From Gemmatimonadota bacterium (lineage in GTDB: Bacteria > Gemmatimonadota > Gemmatimonadetes > Palauibacterales > Palauibacteraceae): DNA of 64,000 bases. The DNA lies in assembly GCA_049668445.1 (NCBI GenBank), contig JBATJK010000179.1, positions 10,567 through 74,566 of the forward strand, given 5' to 3'. Numbering within the stretch: position 1 is the first letter of the stretch; each line of letters opens with the position of its first letter. Made by a program: the position numbers and the translations under genes. Below are positions 24,061 through 38,869 of this stretch, in pieces. The notes beneath the pieces are model-generated. The model saw only the letters and a list, made by a program, of their open reading frames with translations, made no database searches and had not been told where the DNA came from.

Positions 24061-24369
24061 GTGTCCGGGCCCGACGTCCCCGCCCCCGGTACCCTTACAT
24101 GCGTGAGGTGCGGCAAGCCCGACCAGGAACCCATCTCCAGGCCACCGTTCCCGAACGAGCTGGGGCAGAGGCTGGTGTCCGAGATCTGCTCGGAATGCTG
24201 GAACGAGTGGAAGCAGCGGCAAATGCTCCTGATCAACCACTACGGACTGAACGTGCGCGACCCGCAAGCCCGCGAGTTCCTGGTGACCAACCTGCGCACC
24301 TTCCTGTTCGACGAAGGCGATGACCAGGCCGAGATCGACACGTCCCGGGAAGGAGACGTCAGCTGGTGA
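24061..24369 (+). CDS. yggX: Fe(2+)-trafficking / oxidative-damage protection protein YggX
   Basis: Strong similarity to E. coli YggX (CxxC...GxRxxxEICxECWxEWxxxQxMLINxxxLN); about 90-100 aa. Confidence 0.8.
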   Translation: MSGPDVPAPGTLTCVRCGKPDQEPISRPPFPNELGQRLVSEICSECWNEWKQRQMLLINHYGLNVRDPQAREFLVTNLRTFLFDEGDDQAEIDTSREGDVSW

Positions 24370-26824: not shown

Positions 26825-27014
26825 ATCTCACTGCCGGCGCTATCCGGCCTGTCGAATCTCTCGGGGTGGCCGTCCGGTCACGGGGGGACCCCGGCCGGCG
26901 GCGCTCGATTGCCAAGCGGGGGATTATGGGACGGCCCTTCCCCGGTCACAAGCTGAAGGTCATGCAGGTCATGCCTTGCTCCAGCCCGACCTCACGCCTA
27001 GGCTAGGCTCTCAT

Positions 27015-27650
27015 ATGAAACAGACCACGGAAATCGACGGTTGGCTGAGCCCCAGTGTGGCCCTCGTACTTCTCGAGTCTCTGCGCGACGTGGACACTCC
27101 GCCGGAGGTGCTCGAGGACGAGGCGTTTCACATCAGCCTTCCGCGGCGTCTCGGGCTGAGCGACGTCATCGACGGGCAGATGCGACGCTACGCCGACATG
27201 CGGAAGCGAAGGCGGCAACTGGAAGCCAGTGAGTTCCTGGATCTGCTTCGGCTCATCGCTCGCCGGCCTGACGCTCGCATGGTCTTTGAGGCCGCCGGGG
27301 ACCGGCTGGGGTCGGAGTATGTCTCGCGGACCCCGCGCGCCGCGGGCTTCGCGCGGCGGCTCTCACCGGCGGGATTCCGACGGCGATCGCTTCTGCGCCA
27401 TCTGCGGCGGGTCGCAGAATCTCTCAGCCCGGGCAGTGCGATCCGGTCCGACCGGACGGACCCGTCGATTTCGGTGGCGCATTGTCTTCCAGCTGTGGCC
27501 GATGGCACCGGGTCGGCCTGCGGGATCATCACGGCTGCGTTTACGGCGTGCGCTCACGGGCTGGGCGAATCGACGCCGGTTCGTCACCCGCGCTGCGAGA
27601 GCCGGGGAGACGACCAGTGCCTGTGGGAGGTCGCACCGCTGCAGAACTAG
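27015..27650 (+). CDS. Hypothetical protein (possibly V4R-like Cys-containing C-terminus)
   Basis: ORF with a coding-like pattern beginning MKQTTEIDGW; C-terminal Cys/His cluster (CAHGLG...HPRCESRGDDQC). Family uncertain. Confidence 0.4.
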   Translation: MKQTTEIDGWLSPSVALVLLESLRDVDTPPEVLEDEAFHISLPRRLGLSDVIDGQMRRYADMRKRRRQLEASEFLDLLRLIARRPDARMVFEAAGDRLGSEYVSRTPRAAGFARRLSPAGFRRRSLLRHLRRVAESLSPGSAIRSDRTDPSISVAHCLPAVADGTGSACGIITAAFTACAHGLGESTPVRHPRCESRGDDQCLWEVAPLQN

Positions 27651-28555
27651 CCCGCCGGCGATTCTCCTCCGTCCGGCTCACGATCGACCGCGTTCCACGG
27701 CTCCACGTGAACCACGGCGACCGAGAAACCCGCACCCTCCACGAGTCGGCGCTCCACCGCATCCGCCACCTGGTGGCCCGCTTCCACGGTCAGGTCTCCG
27801 TCTACTTCTACCGTGAGTTCCACGAACGCGGCGCCCTCGAGATCCCCCCGGCTCCGCACTTCGGTCACGTCTTGAACGCCGGCCACGTCTGAGACGAAGC
27901 GATGGATCCTGGCCGCGTCGATGGCAGCCTGGTCCACGAGGGAGGGAATGGCCTGCCTGAGTATCTCCCAGCCGCTGTGGGCGATGAGAAGCGCCACGAC
28001 AATTCCGAGCCAGGCATCGGCCGCCGTCCAGCCCCGGCTCACGATGAACAGGCCCCCCAGGACCGACGCGGTGACCAACACGTCGGTGCCGGTGTGACGT
28101 GCATCAGCCTTGAGGAGCACGCTGTTGAGTCGTTTCCCCGCCCGATTCTCGGTCCACGCCACCACCACGTTGACGGCCATCGTACCCAGGAGCACGGCGA
28201 AGGTGAGGGGCTCCAGGCGGGGGGGCGCCGCATCGCCGAGCAATCTTCCGATCGCGGCGCTCACCAGTTCGAAACAGGTGATGGAGAGGAAGGCTACGAC
28301 GGCGAGCGCGCCGAGCACTTCGAACTTCGCGTGGCCGTACGGGTGCTCGTCGTCCGGTGGAGCGGACGCGGCTTTCACCGCCGCGAGGCCGACCACGTTG
28401 TTGAGCGCATCCACCCCCGAGTGAGCGGCGTCTCCGAGGACCGCCAGGGAACCCGAGCGCAGGCCGATCCAGACCTTGGCGATGATCACGGCGAGATTCG
28501 CGAGCAGAACGGCCCACAGGACCCGGCGGACGGCCGCGTGTCGGTCCGAAGTCAC
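27647..28555 (-). CDS. Cation diffusion facilitator (CDF) family divalent-metal efflux transporter
   Basis: Six TM helices with HxxxD-type metal-binding motifs (GDAAHSGVDAL; ADARHTGTDVL) and a C-terminal cytoplasmic domain. Confidence 0.85.
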   Translation of the reverse strand: MTSDRHAAVRRVLWAVLLANLAVIIAKVWIGLRSGSLAVLGDAAHSGVDALNNVVGLAAVKAASAPPDDEHPYGHAKFEVLGALAVVAFLSITCFELVSAAIGRLLGDAAPPRLEPLTFAVLLGTMAVNVVVAWTENRAGKRLNSVLLKADARHTGTDVLVTASVLGGLFIVSRGWTAADAWLGIVVALLIAHSGWEILRQAIPSLVDQAAIDAARIHRFVSDVAGVQDVTEVRSRGDLEGAAFVELTVEVDGDLTVEAGHQVADAVERRLVEGAGFSVAVVHVEPWNAVDREPDGGESPAG

Positions 28556-28779
28556 CGGTTGGACCAGCGCCCGGTGCCGGGTCTTCGGCCACTCCCCCTG
28601 CGCCGGGATCCGCCCATTCGATCCAGGAGCAGGCGGATGGGGGCCCTGCGCGGAGCCTTTGCCCCCGTGTCCTCGTAGCGCTCGTACAGGCCCGGGTAGC
28701 CCAGACCGATCCAGACACCGACTGCCAGAGCCAGCACACTCGCGACAATCAGGAGTACGAGAAAGGTCTGGTCGGTCAT
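28552..28779 (-). CDS. Small single-TM membrane protein (hypothetical, 75 aa)
   Basis: Met at 28779 preceded by GGAGA; TM FLVLLIVASVLALAVGVWIGLGY; stop overlaps the CDF start (ATGA). The longer track ORF N-terminus is likely non-coding. Confidence 0.35.
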   Translation of the reverse strand: MTDQTFLVLLIVASVLALAVGVWIGLGYPGLYERYEDTGAKAPRRAPIRLLLDRMGGSRRRGSGRRPGTGRWSNR

Positions 28780-28988
28780 TCGTCCATCTCCGGGTTGCGC
28801 TACGCCGCTGCCTGAACCTCTATATGCCGTGCCCCGCTGACCGGACGCAACCTCTCGCGGTCCGCCAGGCCAACCGACATCCGCCTGCTTGCACATTCGC
28901 CCAGGGGAGGCCAGCTTTTGGTGAAACGTCGGCGCGTCGTGCCGGCGTCGTGCCTGACCCGGCAATTTCAACTTCAGGAGAGGTTACC

Positions 28989-30428
28989 GTGCGCGACTCC
29001 GACCTCCTTCGCTGCTCCTTCCGTCGGACTGTGAGAGCCAGCCTGGCCGTGCTGGGGCTTGCCGCTTTTGCGGGCGGCTGTGTGGACGAAGACACCGTGT
29101 ACAACGATCGGCCGTTCGGCGACGATCCGCCGGCCTCAGCCGGTGGCATGCTGGGATACGTGCAGGGACAGGCGGGAGAGCCGACGTGCGCCCAATGTCA
29201 CGCCACGCCGAGCGCGAGCTGGACCACGACGGCGCACGCCGGTGCGTGGAACACTCTTCAAGACAGCGGGCACGCGCAGGAATTCTGCGAGGCCTGCCAC
29301 GCGGTCAGTCAGCTCGGCAACGCGGCGACCGAGCCCGCCGGCTGGACGTCCACCGGGGATTCGAGGTACGTGGACGTGCAGTGCGAGGCGTGCCACGGGG
29401 CCGGTGAAACGCACGTGGCCAATCCGGAAGCCTCTCAGCCGCTGCCCTCGCTCGCGGTTGGCGCCGACCTTACGAACGGCTGCGGTGAGTGCCACAACGG
29501 CACGCACCATCCGTTCGTCGAGCAGTGGTCGTTGTCGAAGCACTCGGAGGTAGTCACTTTCGCCGCCAGTCGGCTCGAGTGCGCCGGCTGCCACCGGGGC
29601 CAGGGGACGCTGCTCGCATGGGGGGTCCGCTCCAACTACCTGGAGCGGGACTCTGAGGAGCCCCTCGCGGTCGTATGCGGCGTCTGTCATTCGATGCACG
29701 ACAACACGTTCGAGGGTCAGCTCAGGTTCCCGGTCCAGACGCCGGACGTCGAGGTTCACCTTTGCGCGCGGTGCCATAACCGGCGTTCCGTCGCGGATCC
29801 CAACTCCAGTCACGGCCTCGAGCCGCACGCTCCGGAGACGGCACACCTGGTGGGCGAGTCCGGCTGGGTACCCCCCGGATCGGGACTGGCCCTTGGTTCG
29901 ATCAGCATGACGCACGGATCGCCAAGCAATGAGAAGCTGTGCGCAACCTGCCACGTGGCCATGTACACGGTCACGGATCAGGCCACGGGGGAATTCGAGT
30001 TCCAGGCCGTTGGGCACACGTTCGAGTCAATCCCCTGCGTGGACGAGAGCGGTATCCCGAACGGCGAAGCGGACTGCGCCGTCGATGCCGGTGCCCGATC
30101 GTTCGCTGGCTGCGTGACCTCGGGCTGTCACTCGACCGCAGAATCCGCCGCCGCACTCCTGAACCTCCGGGCCGACAACATCGCGCTTCAGGTGGCGGTC
30201 CTGCTCGACCTGCTGGAGCAGGTGGATCCCAATCTCGATGAACCGGGTGGTGAGATCGACGCCACCGTCGCGACGTTCACCGTCGCCGAGGGCGGCTTCT
30301 TCAACTACAGCCTGGCGACCCATGGAGGCGACGTGTACGGGTCCACGACGCACAACGCTCCGTGGATGAGGGCGTTGCTGGAGGCCAGCATCACAGCGGT
30401 GCAGGACGAGTATGGAGTGAGTCCGTAA
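28989..30428 (+). CDS. Multiheme c-type cytochrome lipoprotein (8 canonical CxxCH plus one CxxxxCH)
   Basis: GTG start at 28989 after an AGGAGA RBS; lipobox LAVLGLAAFAGGC; heme motifs CAQCH, CEACH (x2), CGECH, CAGCH, CGVCH, CARCH, CATCH and an atypical CVTSGCH. Confidence 0.8.
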   Translation: MRDSDLLRCSFRRTVRASLAVLGLAAFAGGCVDEDTVYNDRPFGDDPPASAGGMLGYVQGQAGEPTCAQCHATPSASWTTTAHAGAWNTLQDSGHAQEFCEACHAVSQLGNAATEPAGWTSTGDSRYVDVQCEACHGAGETHVANPEASQPLPSLAVGADLTNGCGECHNGTHHPFVEQWSLSKHSEVVTFAASRLECAGCHRGQGTLLAWGVRSNYLERDSEEPLAVVCGVCHSMHDNTFEGQLRFPVQTPDVEVHLCARCHNRRSVADPNSSHGLEPHAPETAHLVGESGWVPPGSGLALGSISMTHGSPSNEKLCATCHVAMYTVTDQATGEFEFQAVGHTFESIPCVDESGIPNGEADCAVDAGARSFAGCVTSGCHSTAESAAALLNLRADNIALQVAVLLDLLEQVDPNLDEPGGEIDATVATFTVAEGGFFNYSLATHGGDVYGSTTHNAPWMRALLEASITAVQDEYGVSP

Positions 30429-30481
30429 GGGAGGGTTCTCTCGCAGGCACTACCCGGCGGCGACGCTCTCCGGGCCGAGAC

Positions 30482-30530
30482 AAACGAAAGACCCGCGGAA
30501 GCCACTGGCCTCCGCGGGTCTCTTGTTTCG
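30482..30530. terminator. Bidirectional rho-independent terminator between convergent cytochrome genes
   Basis: GACCCGCGGA-agccactggcc-TCCGCGGGTC stem-loop flanked by an A-tract (caaacgaaa) and a T-tract (tcttgttt). Confidence 0.6.
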
Positions 30531-30579
30531 GGAGAGGTCGTTTCCGCTCTCTCCTGTTCCGTTTACTGGCGTCCGACGA

Positions 30580-30969
30580 TCAGCCGGCCGCCACGTGGCA
30601 CATGGTGCACGTGGCGTCTGCCCGCCCTTCGTGGCTGGCGGGAGCCGCAGGCATCCCTTCCATCGCACCCGAATGGCACATGGCGCAGGCCTCACGTCCA
30701 GCGATCTCGTGCGGAGTCGCCGAAGCGGCACCGGTCTGCATCTCCGAGTCGGCGGCATGGCACAACAGGCACGTGTCCAGCTCTCGACCCTCGTGGTCCG
30801 CCGGGTTGGCCGGGATCCCTTCCATGGCACCGGAATGGCACATGGTACAGTTCTCCTTGCCCGCCAGGTCGTGCGACACGACCGTCGGCTTCTCCTGCGC
30901 AAACGCTGGAGCCGCGGCAAGCGCCACGAACAGCGCCGTACCGGCAGCAATCGACATTAGACGGTTCAT
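30580..30969 (-). CDS. Small periplasmic tetraheme c-type cytochrome with an internal tandem duplication
   Basis: Signal peptide MNRLMSIAAGTALFVALAAAPAFA; four CxxCH (CTMCH, CLLCH, CAMCH, CTMCH); two 33-aa repeats CxMCHSGAMEG(I/M)PAxPAxHEGR...C..CH, also visible as a DNA-level repeat. GGAGA RBS. Confidence 0.75.
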   Translation of the reverse strand: MNRLMSIAAGTALFVALAAAPAFAQEKPTVVSHDLAGKENCTMCHSGAMEGIPANPADHEGRELDTCLLCHAADSEMQTGAASATPHEIAGREACAMCHSGAMEGMPAAPASHEGRADATCTMCHVAAG

Positions 30970-31243
30970 ACGAGCTCTCCTTTGAGTTTGCTTACCTTCC
31001 CGCGGCCGCTCTCTACCGCGTAAAACAAGCACGTATATGATAGTTTACACCGGTCGCTATCGCGAGTCTCACCCTATTGGACACCAGTGCAACGTCCACT
31101 GTTTGAATCCGTGGCGACTCGCATGTTCCGCCGCGCCGTTGACGAAACCGAAGTAGCCACAACGCAACGGTTTCGCGGCACGAAAGGTGCTGTGACTGAT
31201 GGGTGAAGCGCTCCCCTCGCTTCACATACATCGGAGACTCGTC

Positions 31244-33250
31244 ATGCTCCTCCAACGACCCCCAATCGCTCGTTGGCTGATGATGCTCACGTGCGTCCTC
31301 CTGTCGGCCTCGCCGTTCGCTCCGCCGCTTCGCGCCCAGGAGACGACCGACGATCCAAACCGCACCTGCTACATGTGCCACGGCGACCCTGAGAACTTCG
31401 CGAACCGGGAGGACGGCCAGCGACTCATCGTGACACAGGACGAATTCGCCGGCTCAGTGCACGGTGGTTTCGGGTTCGCGTGCACGACGTGCCACCGCGA
31501 CTTCGCCTTTCCGCACCCGGAGGAATACGTGCCCGTGCGGTGCGGCGCCTGTCACGGTTCCGAGGACCGGCAGTACGGCGAGAGCGTGCACGGATATGCC
31601 CTGGCGCGTGCCAACGAACGAGCTCCGACGTGCGCCGGGTGTCACGGAAAGCACGACATACGCCGAAGCGACGACCCGGAAAGCCACACCTATCACACGC
31701 GCGTCGCGGAGACCTGCACGGACTGCCACAGCACCGCCGGACTGCTCACGGACCAGTATCTGAAGCTGCCGTCGCCCGCTGCTCAGTTCGCTCAGTCCGT
31801 CCACGGCGAAGCCGGTGAGGCCGGCGACATGGGCGCCGCGACGTGTACAGACTGTCACGGCGTTCACGATCTCAGGGGACACAACGACCCCCTCTCGCGC
31901 ATCAATCGGTTGAACGTCTCTGAAACCTGCGGTGCCTGCCACCAGGAGATCACCACCGACTACGACCGGTCGATTCACGGGCGGGCGCTGGCGGCCGGAA
32001 TCGGCGACAGCCCCACGTGCACCGATTGCCACGGCGAGCACCTGATCCTGCATCCGTCCGACCCGGACGCCGGAACGCACGCCAATCACATGGCGGCTGA
32101 CCTGTGCGGCGATTGCCACGACGATCCGGTGATCGTGGCCAAGTACAGTCTTCGAGACGACGTGGTCCACTCGTACGCCGACAGCTACCACGGGTGGGCG
32201 ACCGGACGAAACCACGAGCATGCGGCCACGTGCGTGAGTTGCCATACGGCTCACCTGGTGCTGCCGACGGCCGACCCGGAGTCGTCGGTCTCCGAGGCGA
32301 ACGTGGTCGCCACGTGCCAGCAATGCCACGAAGGAGCGAGCGCGGAGTTCGCCGCCTCGTACGACCACGCCGCGGCTTCCGCGGCCACGAACAAGGGCCG
32401 ACGGATCGTCACCGCCCTCTACATCGGACTCATCATCGTGGTGATCGGAGGCATGGCACTCCACAACGCGCTCATTCTCAACTACTACCTGGTCGAGAAG
32501 CGACGAAGGGAACGGCAGGAGCGCGGCGTCGTGCGGTTCGACAAGATCCAGATCGTGCAGCATATGACGCTGGCCGTGTCATTCATCCTGCTCGTGATCA
32601 CCGGGTTCGCCCTGCGCTACCCTGATACCCTATGGGTGAAGTGGACGGGACTCACCTTCCTCAGCGAGCCGGTTCGGTCGTGGAGCCACCGAATCCTCGG
32701 AGTCGGCCTGATCCTGTTCTCGGTCGTTCATGTCCTCTACATCCTGTTCGCCCGCCGCGGACGCGACGAGTTCAAGGCCATGCTGCCGAACTTCCAGGAT
32801 CTGAAGGACTTCATCGACAACATGCGCTTCCACACGTGGGGCACGAAGCGCAAACCGCGCTTCGGACGCTACGACTACACGCAGAAGGCGGAGTACTGGG
32901 CCCTCGTTTGGGGTACCGCCCTGATGGCCATCACCGGGCTGGTACTATGGTTCCCGGTTCTGGCCACCACGTGGGCTCCGGCCTGGGTGGTCTCCATCTC
33001 GGAGACGATCCACTTCTACGAGGCCTGGCTGGCGATGCTGGCGATCGTGGTGTGGCACTTCTTCTTCGTCATGGTGCACCCGGATGTCTATCCGATGAGC
33101 TGGATCTGGCTCACCGGGAAGATGCCCGAGCACGAGGTGCAGGCCGTACACGGCCGCTGGTACGATGAGGAAGTCCAGGACATGCTCGACGCGCTTCCGC
33201 CGGGTGAAACGACGGCGGGGCTACCGGACCGTCGAGCCGACGCAGGCTGA
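31244..33250 (+). CDS. Fusion protein: periplasmic 11-heme c-type cytochrome + C-terminal diheme cytochrome b membrane domain (HydC/FdnI/Ni-hydrogenase cyt b-like; CbcL-like)
   Basis: Signal peptide; 11 CxxCH motifs; C-terminal five TM helices with conserved His ligands (ALHNAL, VQHMTL, HRILG...VVHVLY, WHFFFVMVHP). GGAGA RBS before the Met at 31244. Confidence 0.8.
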   Translation: MLLQRPPIARWLMMLTCVLLSASPFAPPLRAQETTDDPNRTCYMCHGDPENFANREDGQRLIVTQDEFAGSVHGGFGFACTTCHRDFAFPHPEEYVPVRCGACHGSEDRQYGESVHGYALARANERAPTCAGCHGKHDIRRSDDPESHTYHTRVAETCTDCHSTAGLLTDQYLKLPSPAAQFAQSVHGEAGEAGDMGAATCTDCHGVHDLRGHNDPLSRINRLNVSETCGACHQEITTDYDRSIHGRALAAGIGDSPTCTDCHGEHLILHPSDPDAGTHANHMAADLCGDCHDDPVIVAKYSLRDDVVHSYADSYHGWATGRNHEHAATCVSCHTAHLVLPTADPESSVSEANVVATCQQCHEGASAEFAASYDHAAASAATNKGRRIVTALYIGLIIVVIGGMALHNALILNYYLVEKRRRERQERGVVRFDKIQIVQHMTLAVSFILLVITGFALRYPDTLWVKWTGLTFLSEPVRSWSHRILGVGLILFSVVHVLYILFARRGRDEFKAMLPNFQDLKDFIDNMRFHTWGTKRKPRFGRYDYTQKAEYWALVWGTALMAITGLVLWFPVLATTWAPAWVVSISETIHFYEAWLAMLAIVVWHFFFVMVHPDVYPMSWIWLTGKMPEHEVQAVHGRWYDEEVQDMLDALPPGETTAGLPDRRADAG

Positions 33251-33274
33251 TACCGGGCAGGCCGATTGCCCCCC

Positions 33275-33308
33275 GGGTCGGGCAACCCCCGACCCACGGG
33301 TTGTTGTG
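33275..33308 (+). terminator. Putative intrinsic terminator after the first cytochrome c/b fusion gene
   Basis: GGGTCGGG-caacc-CCCGACCC hairpin followed by GTTGTTGTG; a lower-GC 200-bp intergenic region follows, presumably the promoter of the next gene. Confidence 0.4.
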
Positions 33309-33511
33309 CCCACGAGCGTTGTGTCATTCTGACCCATTCCGAGTCCTTATCACGGTTCGGCAAGACTTGGACACACGCATATCTCGTTGTTCGGTGTAGC
33401 TTTGCCGAATTGTGTCCAGTTCTTGCAGGTTGTTCGTGCGGCGTTGCGGGTCTCAGCATTCGGGGTCCGCTCCGCCCTCGTGTAGGGACGACCACTCCTT
33501 CCGGAGGTCCA

Positions 33512-36322
33512 ATGCGGATTCGGAAGTTCAGAATAGCGAAGCGACTGACCCCGCTGGCCGCTGCGGCCACGCTCTTGATATTGGCGGCCCCTGCCGCCGC
33601 GCAGGAAGTCAACTGTCTGATGTGTCACGAGAACCCGGCGTTCTTCCAGAGCCAGGAGAACGGCGAGCGCCTCGTGGTCACCCAGGAATCGCTGTCGGGC
33701 TCGGTACATGGCAGCCTTCGTTGCCAGGACTGTCACGCGGGACTCGAGTTCCCACACCAGGCAGACGCCCCGGCGCCCAGTTGCGGGCAGTGCCACGGGA
33801 GACAGTCGCGCCAACACCAGCAGTCGCTGCACGGGCAGGCCGCCGCCCGCGGCGATGCGCTCGCACCGGAATGCGAGGACTGTCACGGCACGCACGAGAT
33901 CCTGTCGAGTCGGGAGTTGGCTTCGCCGACATCGGTGATGAACATCCCGATCCTGTGCGGCGAATGTCACCAGGAAGGCACGGAGGTATCGGAGCGAATA
34001 GACATTCCGCAGGACAGCATCCTGCACAACTACTCCCTGTCCATCCACGGGGCCGGCCTGTTCGAGCGCGGCCTGTCGGTGACCGCCGTATGCACTTCCT
34101 GCCACACGTCGCACTTCATCCTTCCGCACACGGATCCCCGCTCGAGCATCCACGTGGACAACGTCGCCGGGACGTGCATGGCATGTCACGCGCGGATCGA
34201 GGAAGTGCACACGCAGGTGATCGAAGGGCGACTGTGGGAAGAACAGCCCCATATGATCCCGGCTTGCGTGGACTGTCATGAGCCGCACGAGATTCGTCGC
34301 GTGTTCTACGATGCGGGGGTCGCGAACGCGGACTGCCTGGCCTGCCACTCCGATCCGGAACTCATGGGCACGGATTTCGACGGAAACAGCGTCTCGATGT
34401 TCGTGGACGAGGGCCCTTACAGCCTGGGGGCGCATCAGGGTACGACGTGCGCGCAGTGCCACACCGACGTGAGCGTCGCGTACGAGGAGCGTCCTTGCGA
34501 GACCCTCTCCTCGGCGGTCGACTGCGCGATCTGCCACGCCGGACCGGTCTCCGAGTACCAGGCCAGCAGCCACGGCACACTGGCCGCGGAGGGTGTGACC
34601 GACGCTCCCACGTGCCTGGATTGCCACGAGAAACACGCCACGGGGGACAACGACAATCCGACCTCGCCGACGTATGCCCGGAACGTCCCCGAGCTGTGCT
34701 CTACCTGCCACCGCGAAGGGGAAGCGGCGGCCCAACGCATCCAGCGCGAGGGCGCCGACATCGTCGCGGGCTACGAGATGAGCATCCACGGCAAGGGACT
34801 GCTTGAGAGCGGACTCGTGGTCACGGCCACCTGCAGCGACTGCCACGGACCTCACTCGGAGCTTCCGGCCAGCGACTCGACTTCGAGGGTCAATCCGAAC
34901 AACGTCGCCGCCACCTGCGGACAGTGTCACCACGGGATCGAGGAGACGTTCCGCGAGAGCGTCCACTATCCGGAGAACGGGCTCTACACGGCCGAAAGCG
35001 AGCACCAGTATCCTACCTGCGAGGACTGCCACACCTCGCACACGATCGGTCGGACGGACCGGGATGATTTCCGGATGCTCATGATGAGCCAGTGCGGGCG
35101 CTGCCACGAGGACGAGTCCGAGACGTTCTTCGAGACGTACCACGGCAAGGTCTCACGCCTGGGCGGAGCGCGGGCGGCCAAGTGCTATGACTGCCACGGA
35201 ACACACAACATCCTCCCGAATTCGGAGGTTGGTTCGACCCTCAGTCGTGACAACATCCTGGAGACGTGCGCGCAGTGTCACCCGGCCGCGAACGAGAAGT
35301 TCACGGGTTACCTGACGCATGCCACGCACCACGATCCGGACAAGTACCCGTGGCTCTTTCTCGCCTTCTGGGCCATGACGGGCCTGTTGGTCAGCGTGCT
35401 CACTTTCTCGCTCATCCACACCGGCGCATGGCTGTACCGCCTGTGGCGCGAGCCGGAGCACTGGAAGGGCCACGTCGAGGCCGTGGGCGAGGAGCGAAAG
35501 CAGCTCTATCGCCGGTTCACACAACGGCAGCGGATCATGCACCTGGTGATGTTGCTCAGTTTCATGCTGCTGGCCGCGACCGGCATGGCTCTCAAGTTCG
35601 CGTGGATGGGTTGGGCCAAGCTGTTCTCGCGAATGGTCGGCGGATTCGAGGCGATGGGCATCCTGCACCGCCTGGGGGCCGTGGCGCTGATTACCCTTTT
35701 CATCGTTCACCTGGTGGACGTGCGCAAACAGAAGCGCTCGGCCGGGCAGACGTGGAAGGAGTACATCTTCTCCCGAGACTCGCTGATGTTCAACAAGAAC
35801 GACGGACGCGAGTTCGTGGCCTCCATCAAGTGGTTCTTCGGTAAGGGAGAACGACCGAACTACGGCCGCTTCACCTACTGGGAGAAGTTCGATTACTTCG
35901 CCGTCTTCTGGGGGATGTTCATCATCGGCTCCACTGGACTGTTCCTGTGGTTCCCGGAGCTCTTCACGACCGTGCTGCCCGGGTGGTTCGTGAACGTGGC
36001 CACGATCATCCACAGCGATGAGGCGCTGCTGGCAGTGGCGTTCATCTTCACCATCCACTTCTTCAACACGCACTTCCGCCTGGACAAGTTCCCCATGGAT
36101 CCCGTGATCTTCACGGGCCGGGTTCCACTGGAGGAGCTGAAGCGCGACAAGCCGATGGAGTACGAGCGCATGAAGGCGGAAGGAAAGCTGGAAGAGCGGC
36201 TGGTCGATCCGCTTCCGAAGGAATTCGAGACTACCGTTCGCATCTTCGGCTTCACGATGCTCGCGATCGGGCTCACGATCGTGGGGCTCATTCTGTACAC
36301 GATGCTGTTCGGCTACAGATAG
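33512..36322 (+). CDS. Fusion protein: periplasmic 19-heme c-type cytochrome + C-terminal diheme cytochrome b membrane domain (paralog of 31244..33250)
   Basis: GGAGG RBS; signal peptide MRIRKFRIAKRLTPLAAAATLLILAAPAAAQE; 19 CxxCH; C-terminal TM domain with His ligands. N-terminal region is homologous to the upstream paralog (CLMCHENPAFFQSQENGERLVVTQES... vs CYMCHGDPENFANREDGQRLIVTQDE...). Confidence 0.8.
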   Translation: MRIRKFRIAKRLTPLAAAATLLILAAPAAAQEVNCLMCHENPAFFQSQENGERLVVTQESLSGSVHGSLRCQDCHAGLEFPHQADAPAPSCGQCHGRQSRQHQQSLHGQAAARGDALAPECEDCHGTHEILSSRELASPTSVMNIPILCGECHQEGTEVSERIDIPQDSILHNYSLSIHGAGLFERGLSVTAVCTSCHTSHFILPHTDPRSSIHVDNVAGTCMACHARIEEVHTQVIEGRLWEEQPHMIPACVDCHEPHEIRRVFYDAGVANADCLACHSDPELMGTDFDGNSVSMFVDEGPYSLGAHQGTTCAQCHTDVSVAYEERPCETLSSAVDCAICHAGPVSEYQASSHGTLAAEGVTDAPTCLDCHEKHATGDNDNPTSPTYARNVPELCSTCHREGEAAAQRIQREGADIVAGYEMSIHGKGLLESGLVVTATCSDCHGPHSELPASDSTSRVNPNNVAATCGQCHHGIEETFRESVHYPENGLYTAESEHQYPTCEDCHTSHTIGRTDRDDFRMLMMSQCGRCHEDESETFFETYHGKVSRLGGARAAKCYDCHGTHNILPNSEVGSTLSRDNILETCAQCHPAANEKFTGYLTHATHHDPDKYPWLFLAFWAMTGLLVSVLTFSLIHTGAWLYRLWREPEHWKGHVEAVGEERKQLYRRFTQRQRIMHLVMLLSFMLLAATGMALKFAWMGWAKLFSRMVGGFEAMGILHRLGAVALITLFIVHLVDVRKQKRSAGQTWKEYIFSRDSLMFNKNDGREFVASIKWFFGKGERPNYGRFTYWEKFDYFAVFWGMFIIGSTGLFLWFPELFTTVLPGWFVNVATIIHSDEALLAVAFIFTIHFFNTHFRLDKFPMDPVIFTGRVPLEELKRDKPMEYERMKAEGKLEERLVDPLPKEFETTVRIFGFTMLAIGLTIVGLILYTMLFGYR

Positions 36323-36470: not shown

Positions 36471-37925
36471 ATGACTGTCCATCGCCGGCCGTTCTTCTCG
36501 TTTCTCGCGTGCGCCATGGTGTGGCTGCCCTCTGCGGCCCAGGCCCAGGGCATACGCGGAGACGTGAGACTCAACTGGGGCTGGATGCAGCTCCAACCGT
36601 TCGCACAGGACTCGGTCCCCGAGGGCGATGTCTCGGGGTCGGGCCTCCAGCGGCAATTGGCGAACGGGACCGTGGTGTCGTGCATCGAGGGCGATTACTG
36701 CCGCTGGTACGAGAACAACGGCCAGCGCCAGGACATCATGCCCTTCACGCAGGACCTGCGATTCGCCGGGTGGACCGGCGTCCAGGGTCTTTCGTTCCAC
36801 GGGCAGATGCGCACGCGCCTGGGCAGTGACGACCTGTGGCCGCGCACCGATCAGAAGTTCGACCTCCTCACGGGCTACCTGAGCTACAATCGCTCGGCTT
36901 TCCAGATCAAAGCCGGCCGGATGTACAGGGCATCGGGACTCGGCTACTACAACTTCGACGGCGCGTCCGCCGTGTGGCGTGGACTCGGATGGCTGTGGGT
37001 CGAGGGATATGCCGGCTGGAGCCTGGCGCGTGGCGTCAACGCACCGCGGAACGGCAGCCTGTACCAGGATGCCGATCTCCTGGCCACGGACCGACGCGGC
37101 TATCTCTTTGGTGGCGAGCTCGGCTTCCGTGGCGGCAAGGTGTTCTCCGGCTCGGCGACCTACCAGCGCGAGCTCCGCACCGATGAGCTGGCCCTCTATT
37201 CGGAGAGGGCAGCGGTAGACCTCAGGGCCCTCGTGGGCGGCTGGGCATTCGATGGCGGAGCCAGCTACGACTTCGCGTACGACCAGCTCAACGACGCTCG
37301 AGTCCGGATCACGACGCCGCAGGTGCTGGGGATCAAGTTTGCCGCTCAGGCCAGGCACTACACCCCGTTCTTCGACTACTGGACCATCTGGAGCGCCTTC
37401 TCTCCCGTCGGCTTCAACGAGGGGCGCCTTTCAGGCACCTGGACCTCCAGGAGCCTCCCGCTGCTCGTCGAGCTCGGCGGGGCGTACCGCGAGTACGAAG
37501 ACACGAACGCGGGCCCCTCGAACACCACCATCCGCAAAGACGGCTACCGTGGCTTCGGCCGGATCTACTGGAGCCCGGACAAGTGGTACGTGGACGCCCG
37601 CTACCGCGCGGAAGACGGATTCGGAGGCTCCCGGTACGGTGGCGACCTGGTCCTGGGCCGCTACCTGGCCACGGGCTCTGCCTCCTACGTGGCCCTGCGA
37701 GGCACCGCGACGGAGACCCTGTACGAGTTCCGAGAGGGTGAGCGTTACGTGGTTGGCGGCGCCGTCGAAGGATCGTACGACATCACCAAGGCCAACCTGA
37801 CGCTCGACGCCAGCCTCGGTTTCTACCAGATCGAAGACAAGAACCGGCCCCTGGCCGATACCTGGACAGAAGGGCGCGCGAGCGTAGGATTGCGCTGGCG
37901 CTTCAACACTGGAGGTACCCGATGA
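36471..37925 (+). CDS. Putative outer-membrane beta-barrel (porin-like) protein
   Basis: Signal peptide ending AAQAQG; alternating amphipathic beta-strand pattern rich in Y/G/W throughout; aromatic residue near the C-terminus (RWRF); stop overlaps the start of the downstream cytochrome gene. Confidence 0.55.
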   Translation: MTVHRRPFFSFLACAMVWLPSAAQAQGIRGDVRLNWGWMQLQPFAQDSVPEGDVSGSGLQRQLANGTVVSCIEGDYCRWYENNGQRQDIMPFTQDLRFAGWTGVQGLSFHGQMRTRLGSDDLWPRTDQKFDLLTGYLSYNRSAFQIKAGRMYRASGLGYYNFDGASAVWRGLGWLWVEGYAGWSLARGVNAPRNGSLYQDADLLATDRRGYLFGGELGFRGGKVFSGSATYQRELRTDELALYSERAAVDLRALVGGWAFDGGASYDFAYDQLNDARVRITTPQVLGIKFAAQARHYTPFFDYWTIWSAFSPVGFNEGRLSGTWTSRSLPLLVELGGAYREYEDTNAGPSNTTIRKDGYRGFGRIYWSPDKWYVDARYRAEDGFGGSRYGGDLVLGRYLATGSASYVALRGTATETLYEFREGERYVVGGAVEGSYDITKANLTLDASLGFYQIEDKNRPLADTWTEGRASVGLRWRFNTGGTR

Positions 37926-38869
37926 GGCGGCTCGCTTACCTGGGCGCCCTCGTTCTGACGGTCGGCGCCGGAGCGCTGTTCGCGGCCTCCCGTGGATCTT
38001 TCGACTTCCCGCACGAAAAACACGCGGCCCTTGGTGGGGCCGGGTGTGAGAGTTGCCACGCGGGCATCTACTCCGGAGACGCCGCGAGCAACGTCTCGGT
38101 TGACCCGGCACTGTGCTCGGGATGCCATAACGGACAGGCGTTCCCCGAGGTGGGGTACACGGGATACAAACCGCAGGAAAGTGGCCTGAAGTTCCAGCAT
38201 GCCACGCACCCGAAGCTCGGCTGCCAGAACTGCCACGGCGTTCCCGGCGGCGAGGGCGACATGGCCGTTCAGGCCGCATCGGGAGACACGTGCCTGGCCT
38301 GCCACGGCAACGGGGCGACCGACCATTTCGAGGTCGGCATCAACCCGTGCGAGACCTGTCACTACGATCCGGCGCCCGGGCACACGCCTGACTTCATGAC
38401 GCAGCATGCGACGGCGGCAGCAGCGGGACTCCCGAACTGCACGCAGTGCCACAGGGAAACGTTCTGCGTCGACTGCCACGACGGCCCGACGAACCCGGGT
38501 ACGCAGTACCATCCGGCGAACTTCGTCACCCGCCACAGCGCGGAGTCGTGGGCCGCTCCGATGGAGTGCTCCGAGTGCCATTCGAGGGAGGTCTTCTGCC
38601 GCGACTGCCACTCGAACCAGGGAGTCGCGCAGGATGGCAGCCAGAACGGTGGCTACCACGACGGAGTGGCAAACTGGCTGCAGCAGCACGGCGCGGCCGC
38701 GCGGCAGGGCATGGAAAGTTGCACCACCTGCCACCAGCAGACCGAGTGCCTGGCCTGTCACTCGGCCAGGGAAGGATGGCGCGTGAATCCGCACGGACCG
38801 GACTTCGATCCCCAGCGGGCGTCCGACCGCAGCACGCAGTCGTGCGCAATCTGTCACACGGGATACTGA
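37922..38869 (+). CDS. 12-heme c-type cytochrome (secreted), translationally coupled to the beta-barrel gene
   Basis: Signal peptide MRRLAYLGALVLTVGAGALFAASRG; 12 CxxCH in 315 aa; ATGA start/stop overlap with the upstream gene. Confidence 0.8.
   Translation: MRRLAYLGALVLTVGAGALFAASRGSFDFPHEKHAALGGAGCESCHAGIYSGDAASNVSVDPALCSGCHNGQAFPEVGYTGYKPQESGLKFQHATHPKLGCQNCHGVPGGEGDMAVQAASGDTCLACHGNGATDHFEVGINPCETCHYDPAPGHTPDFMTQHATAAAAGLPNCTQCHRETFCVDCHDGPTNPGTQYHPANFVTRHSAESWAAPMECSECHSREVFCRDCHSNQGVAQDGSQNGGYHDGVANWLQQHGAAARQGMESCTTCHQQTECLACHSAREGWRVNPHGPDFDPQRASDRSTQSCAICHTGY

Follow-up and report, generated by a model that had tools for sequence, protein, structure and literature searches.

An OcwA-like nonaheme cytochrome c with a CX4CH heme site, candidate outer partner of a porin-cytochrome conduit in Gemmatimonadota

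The DNA analysed here (the window: 64,000 nucleotides of contig JBATJK010000179.1, from a Gemmatimonadota bacterium; G+C content 65%) contains on its + strand, at positions 28989-30428, a gene for a multiheme cytochrome c, which is called the target below. Gemmatimonadota are among the commonest bacteria of soils and marine sediments; almost none of them has been cultured, and their respiration is known mainly from genomes. The translation of the target carries a signal peptide, eight CxxCH motifs and one CX4CH motif, all conserved, i.e., the marks of a c-type multiheme cytochrome. The GTG start, the AGGAGA ribosome-binding site, the lipobox FAGGC and the nine motifs had all been described in an earlier note made from the sequence alone, and each of them was found again. 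The features of the gene are the following (aa, amino-acid residues of the translation):

28976..28981, + strand: Shine-Dalgarno-like AGGAGA, with a 7-nucleotide spacer to the GTG start at 28989, read from the sequence
28989..30428, + strand: gene of the predicted lipoprotein, nonaheme cytochrome c, 479 aa; the coding part translated is 28989-30425
28989..29081, + strand: predicted signal peptide ending in the lipobox FAGG-C; Cys31 codon TGT at 29079-29081, acidic stretch CVDED after
29082-29093, + strand: acidic V-D-E-D, positions +2 to +5 after Cys31, conserved in the target family
29187..29201, + strand: heme 1 motif CAQCH, aa 67-71, in register with OcwA heme 1
29286..29300, + strand: heme 2 motif CEACH, aa 100-104, in register with OcwA heme 2 CAGCH
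29382..29396, + strand: heme 3 motif CEACH, aa 132-136, then G-x-G-x-H142; target CEACHGAGETHVANP aligns with OcwA CEQCHGPGAKHIKNP
29481..29495, + strand: heme 4 motif CGECH, aa 165-169, conserved, in the OcwA profile alignment
29505..29510, + strand: His173-His174 doublet, aligned with OcwA HH281/282, which lies above heme 2 on its open distal side
29580..29594, + strand: heme 5 motif CAGCH, aa 198-202
29676..29690, + strand: heme 6 motif CGVCH, aa 230-234, then S-M-H237-D; VVCGVCHSMHD aligns with OcwA VTCQVCHASHD
29763..29777, + strand: heme 7 motif CARCH, aa 259-263, conserved, in the OcwA profile alignment
29826..29831, + strand: His280-Ala281, by alignment at the place of HH380/381 in the heme-5 pocket of OcwA; Ala here instead of the second His
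29940..29954, + strand: heme 8 motif CATCH, aa 318-322
30036..30077, + strand: Cys pair C350 (30036-30038) and C363 (30075-30077), in the insertion between hemes 8 and 9
30111..30131, + strand: almost certain heme 9 motif CVTSGCH (CX4CH), aa 375-381
30138..30413, + strand: C-terminal three-helix bundle of the AlphaFold2 model, aa 384-412, 432-443 and 450-475, with conserved His455

The mature protein has 449 residues, with computed masses of ~47 kDa for the apoprotein and ~52.6 kDa with nine hemes, and a computed pI of 4.6. More than 578 homologs were found in a large protein index at an expectation value (E) <=1e-3, the nearest being 86% identical, and 204 at E<=1e-30 among 50%-identity cluster representatives. 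The gene calls of homologs have the same start position and the same length (477-482 aa). Alignment A1, on which most of the conservation data below are based, contains 59 diverse sequences, i.e., the target and 58 homologs. Pfam Cytochrome_C7, Paired_CXXCH_1 and Cytochrome_C554 score above their cutoffs on the target, these being generic multiheme domains only; in the NCBIfam scan no model exceeded its cutoff. The CxxCH motifs begin at residues 67, 100, 132, 165, 198, 230, 259 and 318. Shuffles of the target contain 0.05 CxxCH on average (maximum 2), compared with the 8 observed, and no CxxCK occurs in the 479-aa translation.

The N-terminus consists of an Arg-rich n-region, then the hydrophobic ASLAVLGLAAFAGG, then Cys31. 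This is the pattern of a lipoprotein lipobox, and Cys31 is invariant across the 59 sequences of A1; by pattern match, the target is probably a bacterial lipoprotein. A Tat signal, considered from the FRRTVR of the N-terminus, was rejected since the RR is not kept in more distant homologs. Moreover, c-type cytochromes cross the membrane unfolded, which counts against Tat export; the target is read as a Sec-exported protein. Among 166 homologs, D or E is found at positions +3, +4 and +5 after the lipid-Cys in 77, 64 and 61% of cases, respectively. At least two D/E in positions +2 to +5 are present in 81% of the multiheme lipoproteins versus 21% of 19 other predicted lipoproteins from the same contigs. 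The lipoprotein export signal of Bacteroidetes is C-X-K-(D/E)2 or SDDDD (PMC5080379), and the acidic stretch after the lipid-Cys of the target is similar to it. By analogy, C-V-D-E-D may be a signal for delivery to the cell surface.

The motif CVTSGCH is the sole CX4CH of the target. C375, C380 and H381 are invariant in A1, and the spacing of the two Cys in this column is variable: CX4 in the majority, CX2CH in P0072, P0095, P0107 and P0118, CX3CH in P0031, P0032, P0034, P0035 and P0038, CX5CH in P0094 and CX8CH in P0105. Among full-length 50%-identity representatives, 40 have CX4, 12 have CX2 and one has CX3. In P0319, which is 33% identical to the target, CLECH is aligned to CVTSGCH. The combination of eight CxxCH with one CX4CH is found in 107 of the 120 best homologs. 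By chance, a CX4CH appears in 4.7% of the whole-composition shuffles and in 0.17% of shuffles made without the residues that belong to the eight canonical motifs. Shuffles alone do not suffice, and it is because of its conservation among homologs that the lone CX4CH is convincing. Some members have a canonical heme motif in this column and Cys...Cys-His is kept everywhere, therefore the column is that of a heme attachment site. The CX4CH of the target is almost certainly its ninth heme site. Of the two options that the earlier note had left side by side, i.e., a ninth heme and a structural Cys pair, the comparative data decide for the former, C350/C363 being a better candidate for a disulfide; the two cysteines of the CX4CH, whose loss in homologs the earlier note would have taken as evidence against it, are present in every sequence of A1.

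CX4CH is a recognised, less common heme-binding motif (PMC11492766, PMC9250108). Two of the four heme motifs of cytochrome c3 from Desulfovibrio gigas (PDB 1WAD) are CX4CH, and its AGCTTDGCH and TGCKGSACH resemble the AGCVTSGCH of the target; the likeness is local only (E 0.01-0.05), fold and size being unrelated. The comparison with MccA (Wolinella, PDB 4RKM), which the earlier note had suggested, is apt. Both proteins belong to the same superfamily clade and both bind their last heme by a non-canonical motif, CX15CH in the case of MccA heme 8 (PMC9250108). On superposition, hemes 1-8 of MccA coincide with hemes 1-4 and 6-9 of OcwA (PMC6703420). Taken with the collinearity between the target and OcwA, this superposition would therefore place the CX4CH of the target, just before the three-helix bundle, at the position of MccA heme 8. 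On the contrary, the loop has 4 residues in the target versus 15 in MccA, and no dedicated lyase is linked to the target cluster: of 84 loci, only 2 (L001/L014 and L077) have ResB/CcsA close to the gene, and a dedicated heme lyase for CX4CH, in the manner of MccA, was rejected on this ground.

For the placement of the target, PDB sequences and folds were searched and pairwise BLASTP was run with a fragment of OcwA. OcwA is a nonaheme cell-surface terminal reductase of Thermincola potens (PMC6703420). It is the best match of the target both by profile and by fold. The profile of A1 matches OcwA (6I5B) at 3.4e-15, OmhA (6QVM) at 6e-9, c554 at 1e-4 and ONR at 1.6e-3, the ONR match spanning 47 residues only. 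The AlphaFold2 model has a mean pLDDT (predicted local distance difference test) of 72 and a pTM (predicted template-modelling score) of 0.72, and is well defined from about residue 180 on. Foldseek aligns this model with OcwA over 458 columns at E 3e-6 (probability 1.0, TM-score 0.45, 17% identity). The next matches are NrfA, ONR, MccA and HAO, all at E>=0.13. By HMMER and BLASTP alignments, hemes 1-4 and 6-7 are collinear with those of OcwA. Hemes 5, 8 and 9 were assigned by order, hemes 8-9 being also within the full-length Foldseek alignment. No OcwA alignment covering hemes 8-9 was obtained by phmmer against PDB with the C-terminal 191 aa or the middle 164 aa of the target, and the 116-aa OcwA fragment, rebuilt from the HMMER alignments, had no match as a query against an index of 5.8 billion proteins. 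By these data, the target belongs, though distantly, to the OcwA/OmhA branch within the multiheme superfamily of NrfA, c554 and MccA.

The target shares with OcwA and with OmhA of Carboxydothermus ferrireducens the nine heme sites in the same order and the C-terminal three-helix bundle (target residues 384-475), in which the pLDDT means of 10-residue blocks are 85-98. This bundle is a hallmark of OcwA, NrfA, HAO and MccA (PMC6703420). In OcwA, hemes 2 and 5 are five-coordinate under the His-His pairs 281/282 and 380/381, heme 9 is His-Met, and H381 is common to all OcwA/OmhA sequences (PMC6703420). The pair over heme 2 is matched in sequence alignment by H173-H174 of the target (high-scoring BLASTP segment of target residues 170-264 versus the OcwA fragment, E 4e-7). 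In A1, all sequences have H173 and at least 90% have H174; the corresponding values in the 50%-identity representatives are 89% and 56%. This conserved pair may leave heme 2 open, and small soluble substrates may be reducible there too. On the contrary, the target has Ala for the second His in the pocket of heme 5; H280 is 100% conserved, and the distant relatives P0319 and P0359 retain PHHP at this place.

Other differences from OcwA are that: (i) the beta-sheet domain (OcwA residues 75-156) is missing, the motifs of hemes 1 and 2 starting 33 residues apart instead of ~110, and no strands are predicted between them in the AlphaFold2 model; (ii) an extra Cys-pair insertion lies between hemes 8 and 9; (iii) heme 9 is attached via CX4CH; (iv) the target is predicted to be lipid-anchored and is from diderm bacteria, whereas OcwA and OmhA belong to the Gram-positive wall; (v) the target is genetically coupled to an outer-membrane barrel. 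No conserved Met that could ligate heme 9, as in the His-Met heme of OcwA, was found in the target family; H455 of the bundle, which is conserved, may be its ligand. Since two structural hallmarks of OcwA failed, the target is filed as an OcwA-like family and not as an OcwA. Nine non-motif His are conserved in the target family (H83, H142, H173, H185, H237, H280, H309, H343 and H455). They would fit equally nine bis-His hemes, or seven bis-His hemes and two open ones with pocket His. C350 and C363 are invariant in A1 and both are missing from the distant relatives P0319, P0349, P0351 and P0369; they probably form a disulfide. Redox-active disulfide bridges have been proposed for other outer-membrane multiheme cytochromes (PMC6703420), and the C350/C363 pair is reminiscent of them.

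None of the families that the earlier note had put forward (OTR, ONR, HAO, OmcA/MtrC) fits, and OcwA/OmhA is the home of the target. MtrC and OmcA are decaheme proteins, in which two beta-barrel domains alternate with two pentaheme domains. Pfam PF22113 covers residues 179-275 only of the target and NCBIfam TIGR03507 gives no match; the model has no beta-barrel domains, and no MtrC is among the PDB fold matches. NrfA and ONR possess a CxxCK catalytic heme and a Tyr/His/Arg active site; they were rejected for the lack of CxxCK in the target and a Foldseek E>=0.13. OTR has eight hemes, a Lys-ligated active heme and no C-terminal helix bundle, while the target has nine sites and the bundle, and neither the sequence searches nor the fold search listed OTR among their matches. 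In HAO and HDH, eight hemes are present and the P460 heme is crosslinked to Tyr; the sole match is to the HAO of Kuenenia, at Foldseek E 4.8 and probability 0.03. MccA was compared by its CX15CH/CX17CH heme 8, its catalytic Cys pair C399/C495 and its dedicated CcsA-type lyase. It was rejected as well: the loop of the target has 4 residues, the Foldseek E is 2.4, the MccA catalytic signatures were not found, and ResB/CcsA is found in the 2 of 84 loci already mentioned.

The genes around the target, on which the interpretation also depends, are the following:

26976-27650, + strand: V4R-domain protein with a Cys-rich C-terminus, upstream of the target
27647-28555, - strand: CDF cation-efflux transporter, immediately upstream of the target
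30487..30523, no strand assigned: GC-rich hairpin with a 17-bp stem, between the convergent genes of the target and of the small cytochrome; T-run on the minus strand
30580..31032, - strand: small periplasmic tetraheme cytochrome c with an internal repeat, downstream of the target and convergent to it
31199..33250, + strand: CbcL-like protein, fusion of a cytochrome c domain (11 hemes) with a HydC/FdnI-type cytochrome b (Pfam Ni_hydr_CYTB, E 1.7e-21)
33266..36322, + strand: second CbcL-like protein, 19 hemes and a HydC/FdnI-type cytochrome b domain (Pfam, NCBIfam)
36471..37925, + strand: outer-membrane beta-barrel, ~24 strands, 484 aa (AlphaFold2 pLDDT 85.7, all-beta)
37922..38869, + strand: 12-heme periplasmic cytochrome, 315 aa; start overlapping with the stop of the barrel gene

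The fusion of a cytochrome c with a cytochrome b is the architecture of CbcL of Geobacter (PMC6295460). The first of the two fusions also matches the NCBIfam formate-dehydrogenase gamma model at E 5.6e-17, under the model cutoff. The true start of the second is probably Met83 (nucleotide 33512), ahead of a signal-like sequence. The product of 36471-37925 belongs to no Pfam or NCBIfam family. Its AlphaFold2 model is all-beta and matches porins, usher barrels and MtrB in Foldseek, therefore this 484-aa protein is an outer-membrane barrel of large size. The protein index contains 173 homologs of it at E<=1e-3; the few with a named source are nearly all from Gemmatimonadota, with one from Tepidiformaceae. 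The 12-heme cytochrome is only weakly similar to the DmsE/MtrA family (E 6.7e-5, under cutoff). It always accompanies the barrel in the surveyed loci, and the overlap of the two genes at 37922 suggests translational coupling. The small tetraheme cytochrome is exported, and its internal repeat is C[TA]MCHSGAMEG[IM]PA.PA.HEGR. Homologs of it lie near the cluster in many relatives, and it may be a periplasmic shuttle. A Pfam match of this protein to the IFT121 zinc finger is spurious.

The hairpin is likely a terminator, possibly a bidirectional one. A scan for sigma-70 promoters in 28400-31300 gave no match, such a scan being uninformative for this phylum. The arrangement of V4R and CDF genes upstream of the target recurs in the close relatives L004 and L005, and these neighbours may be linked with metal handling or regulation. 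A small open reading frame at 24061-24369 (+ strand) has the same position as a Pfam Iron_traffic (YggX-like) gene in the syntenic locus L004.

Species-representative genomes were scanned for relatives of the target, and 582 loci were obtained, mostly from Gemmatimonadota (Gemmatimonadales, Longimicrobiales and Palauibacterales) with some from Eisenbacteria and Krumholzibacteriota. The nearest homologs are from uncultured Gemmatimonadota, including bins of the 'marine benthic group'. Synteny was analysed in those 38 retrieved loci in which the target homolog has at least 8 kb of sequence on either side. Homologs of the barrel and of the 12-heme cytochrome are both within 10 kb of the target homolog in 29 of them, with a median gap of 1.9 kb and on the same strand in 28 of these 29. 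In other words, the gene set of a porin-cytochrome conduit (lipoprotein cytochrome, barrel and periplasmic multiheme cytochrome) is complete in 29/38 loci. The cytochrome b/c fusion is present in half of the sample (19/38). In several of the remaining loci, a Rieske/cytochrome b module is inserted and the barrel is displaced beyond the fetched flank.

The order in a complete Gemmatimonadales chromosome (L085) is: target homolog, second lipoprotein cytochrome, barrel, multiheme cytochrome, further cytochrome, Rieske, cytochrome b. A Rieske/cytochrome b module and more multiheme cytochromes were observed in or beside the cluster at 12186-17190 of L004 and 15270-18000 of L085. These modules in relatives suggest alternative entry points that oxidise quinol. 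One contig (L009, CAXMRU010000218.1), binned as Akkermansiaceae, carries an 83%-identical homolog in the same synteny; it is probably a mis-binned contig of Gemmatimonadota. No description of OcwA homologs in Gemmatimonadota was found in the literature. The nearest statement concerns one Gemmatimonadetes bin, said to carry a 'putative mtrABC cluster' (PMC4411801), and CbcL homologs have been counted in Gemmatimonadetes in a survey (PMC6295460).

From the family and the synteny together, the target is rather likely to serve a porin-cytochrome conduit as its outer redox partner. The CbcL-like cytochrome b/c fusions would take electrons from the quinol pool of the inner membrane, and the small periplasmic cytochromes and the 12-heme cytochrome would transfer them onward. 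The 12-heme cytochrome would be threaded through the ~24-strand barrel of the outer membrane, with the nonaheme lipoprotein docked on the outer side of this barrel. The heme chain of the lipoprotein would then deliver electrons to an extracellular or insoluble acceptor, e.g., Fe(III) or Mn(IV) oxide. OcwA in Thermincola and MtrC in Shewanella deliver electrons to their acceptors in an analogous way.

The logic of the module is the same as in MtrCAB of Shewanella and in Pcc/Ext of Geobacter (OmaB-OmbB-OmcB), i.e., a lipoprotein cytochrome, a barrel and a heme-dense periplasmic cytochrome. The feed by a quinol-oxidising inner-membrane cytochrome of CbcL type would likewise be common to them. The parts are different: the target is without the beta-barrel flavin domains of MtrC and OmcA, the barrel has ~24 strands and only a generic barrel similarity to MtrB, and the periplasmic partner has 12 hemes and not 10. 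The earlier note had taken the target as the probable surface-exposed component and the candidate terminal reductase. This is consistent with the homology to OcwA, the synteny with barrel and multiheme genes and the acidic motif; the surface exposure, the direction of electron flow and the substrate are what we infer from sequence.

Several points weigh against this interpretation. At the locus itself, the target gene is monocistronic, with opposite-strand genes on both sides, and lies 6 kb from the barrel gene; elsewhere, one homolog in an 8.1-Mb genome is without cytochrome neighbours. The relatives NrfA, MccA and ONR of the superfamily are periplasmic enzymes. The export signal has been demonstrated in Bacteroidetes only, and the acidic stretch of the target could be a mere flexible linker. 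The target is known from its sequence and from a heme-free model of moderate confidence (pLDDT <50 for residues 106-155), which reaches a TM-score of 0.45 with OcwA, the identity being 17%. Moreover, the target lacks the OcwA beta-sheet domain, the second His in the pocket of heme 5 and, as it seems, the His-Met heme 9. Finally, the direction of electron flow is not readable from sequence.

Three other explanations were weighed. The narrowest concerns CVTSGCH, which would bind no heme: C375 and C380 would be joined as a disulfide or form a metal site, which would leave the target an octaheme cytochrome. A single CX4CH is indeed found in ~5% of whole-composition shuffles, and two more invariant cysteines are close by. 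These, i.e., C350 and C363, are already available for a disulfide, though, and the His of the motif is as invariant as its Cys. Since the same column has the canonical CxxCH in about a dozen branches of the family and corresponds to the ninth heme of OcwA, the absence of a heme is very improbable. Another explanation makes of the target a lipid-anchored enzyme facing the periplasm, which would reduce a soluble N or S compound (nitrite, hydroxylamine, sulfite or tetrathionate) at an open heme, the neighbouring cytochromes being merely electron donors. The superfamily, with its relatives NrfA, ONR, MccA and OTR, and the alignment of His173-His174 with the distal pair over the open heme 2 of OcwA are in line with it, and so is the sorting rule of E. 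coli, which assigns lipoproteins lacking Asp at +2 to the inner, periplasm-facing leaflet of the outer membrane. In vitro, nitrite and hydroxylamine are reduced also by OcwA (PMC6703420). But a CxxCK catalytic heme and the catalytic signatures of MccA, NrfA and HAO were not found in the target, its model resembles NrfA, ONR, MccA and HAO only weakly in fold (E>=0.13), and the nine conserved non-motif His would permit nine bis-His hemes. The tight and widespread linkage to a barrel and a heme-dense periplasmic cytochrome would moreover be left unexplained, and such an enzyme is considered unlikely.

The last explanation keeps the conduit and makes it run inward, as in MtoAB and PioAB: extracellular Fe(II) or Mn(II), a mineral or a partner cell would donate electrons to the lipoprotein, which would pass them to the quinone pool or an oxidase. 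Porin-cytochrome conduits are reversible in principle, and some relatives have a Rieske/cytochrome b module beside the cluster. The class of CbcL, MtoC and MtrH has members from Fe(II) oxidisers, whereas CbcL is tied to reduction in Geobacter (PMC6295460) and OcwA, the closest characterised homolog, is a reductase (PMC6703420). The window contains nothing specific to lithotrophic iron oxidation. Inward flow is hard to separate from the outward conduit described above; it is judged improbable, slightly more so than the periplasmic enzyme.

The CX4CH itself is an ordinary heme motif of a known type. More interesting are the presence of an OcwA-type protein in a diderm porin-cytochrome setting and the wide spread of the module. 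To our knowledge, OcwA-type nonaheme cytochromes have so far been known only from the cell walls of Gram-positive thermophiles. The proposal in its full extent is tentative, its chances being put at somewhat less than even: an OcwA-type nonaheme cytochrome would be the lipid-anchored extracellular end of an undescribed porin-cytochrome conduit, common across Gemmatimonadota, Eisenbacteria and Krumholzibacteriota, and would reach the surface via an acidic export signal like that of Bacteroidetes.

The target family offers a natural series for the tolerance of loop length in heme attachment, with CX2CH, CX3CH, CX4CH, CX5CH and CX8CH at one position, which would be that of CX15CH in MccA. The acidic stretch is a hint that the acidic export signal of surface lipoproteins may operate outside Bacteroidota. 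The conserved module, i.e., CbcL-like quinol oxidases, a 12-heme periplasmic wire, a large outer-membrane barrel and an OcwA-like nonaheme lipoprotein, would be a testable route of metal or electrode respiration, and would tie the OcwA/OmhA reductases of Gram-positive bacteria to the porin-cytochrome systems of diderms. If the proposal is true, these abundant and poorly understood phyla of soils and sediments would be capable of mineral or electrode respiration.

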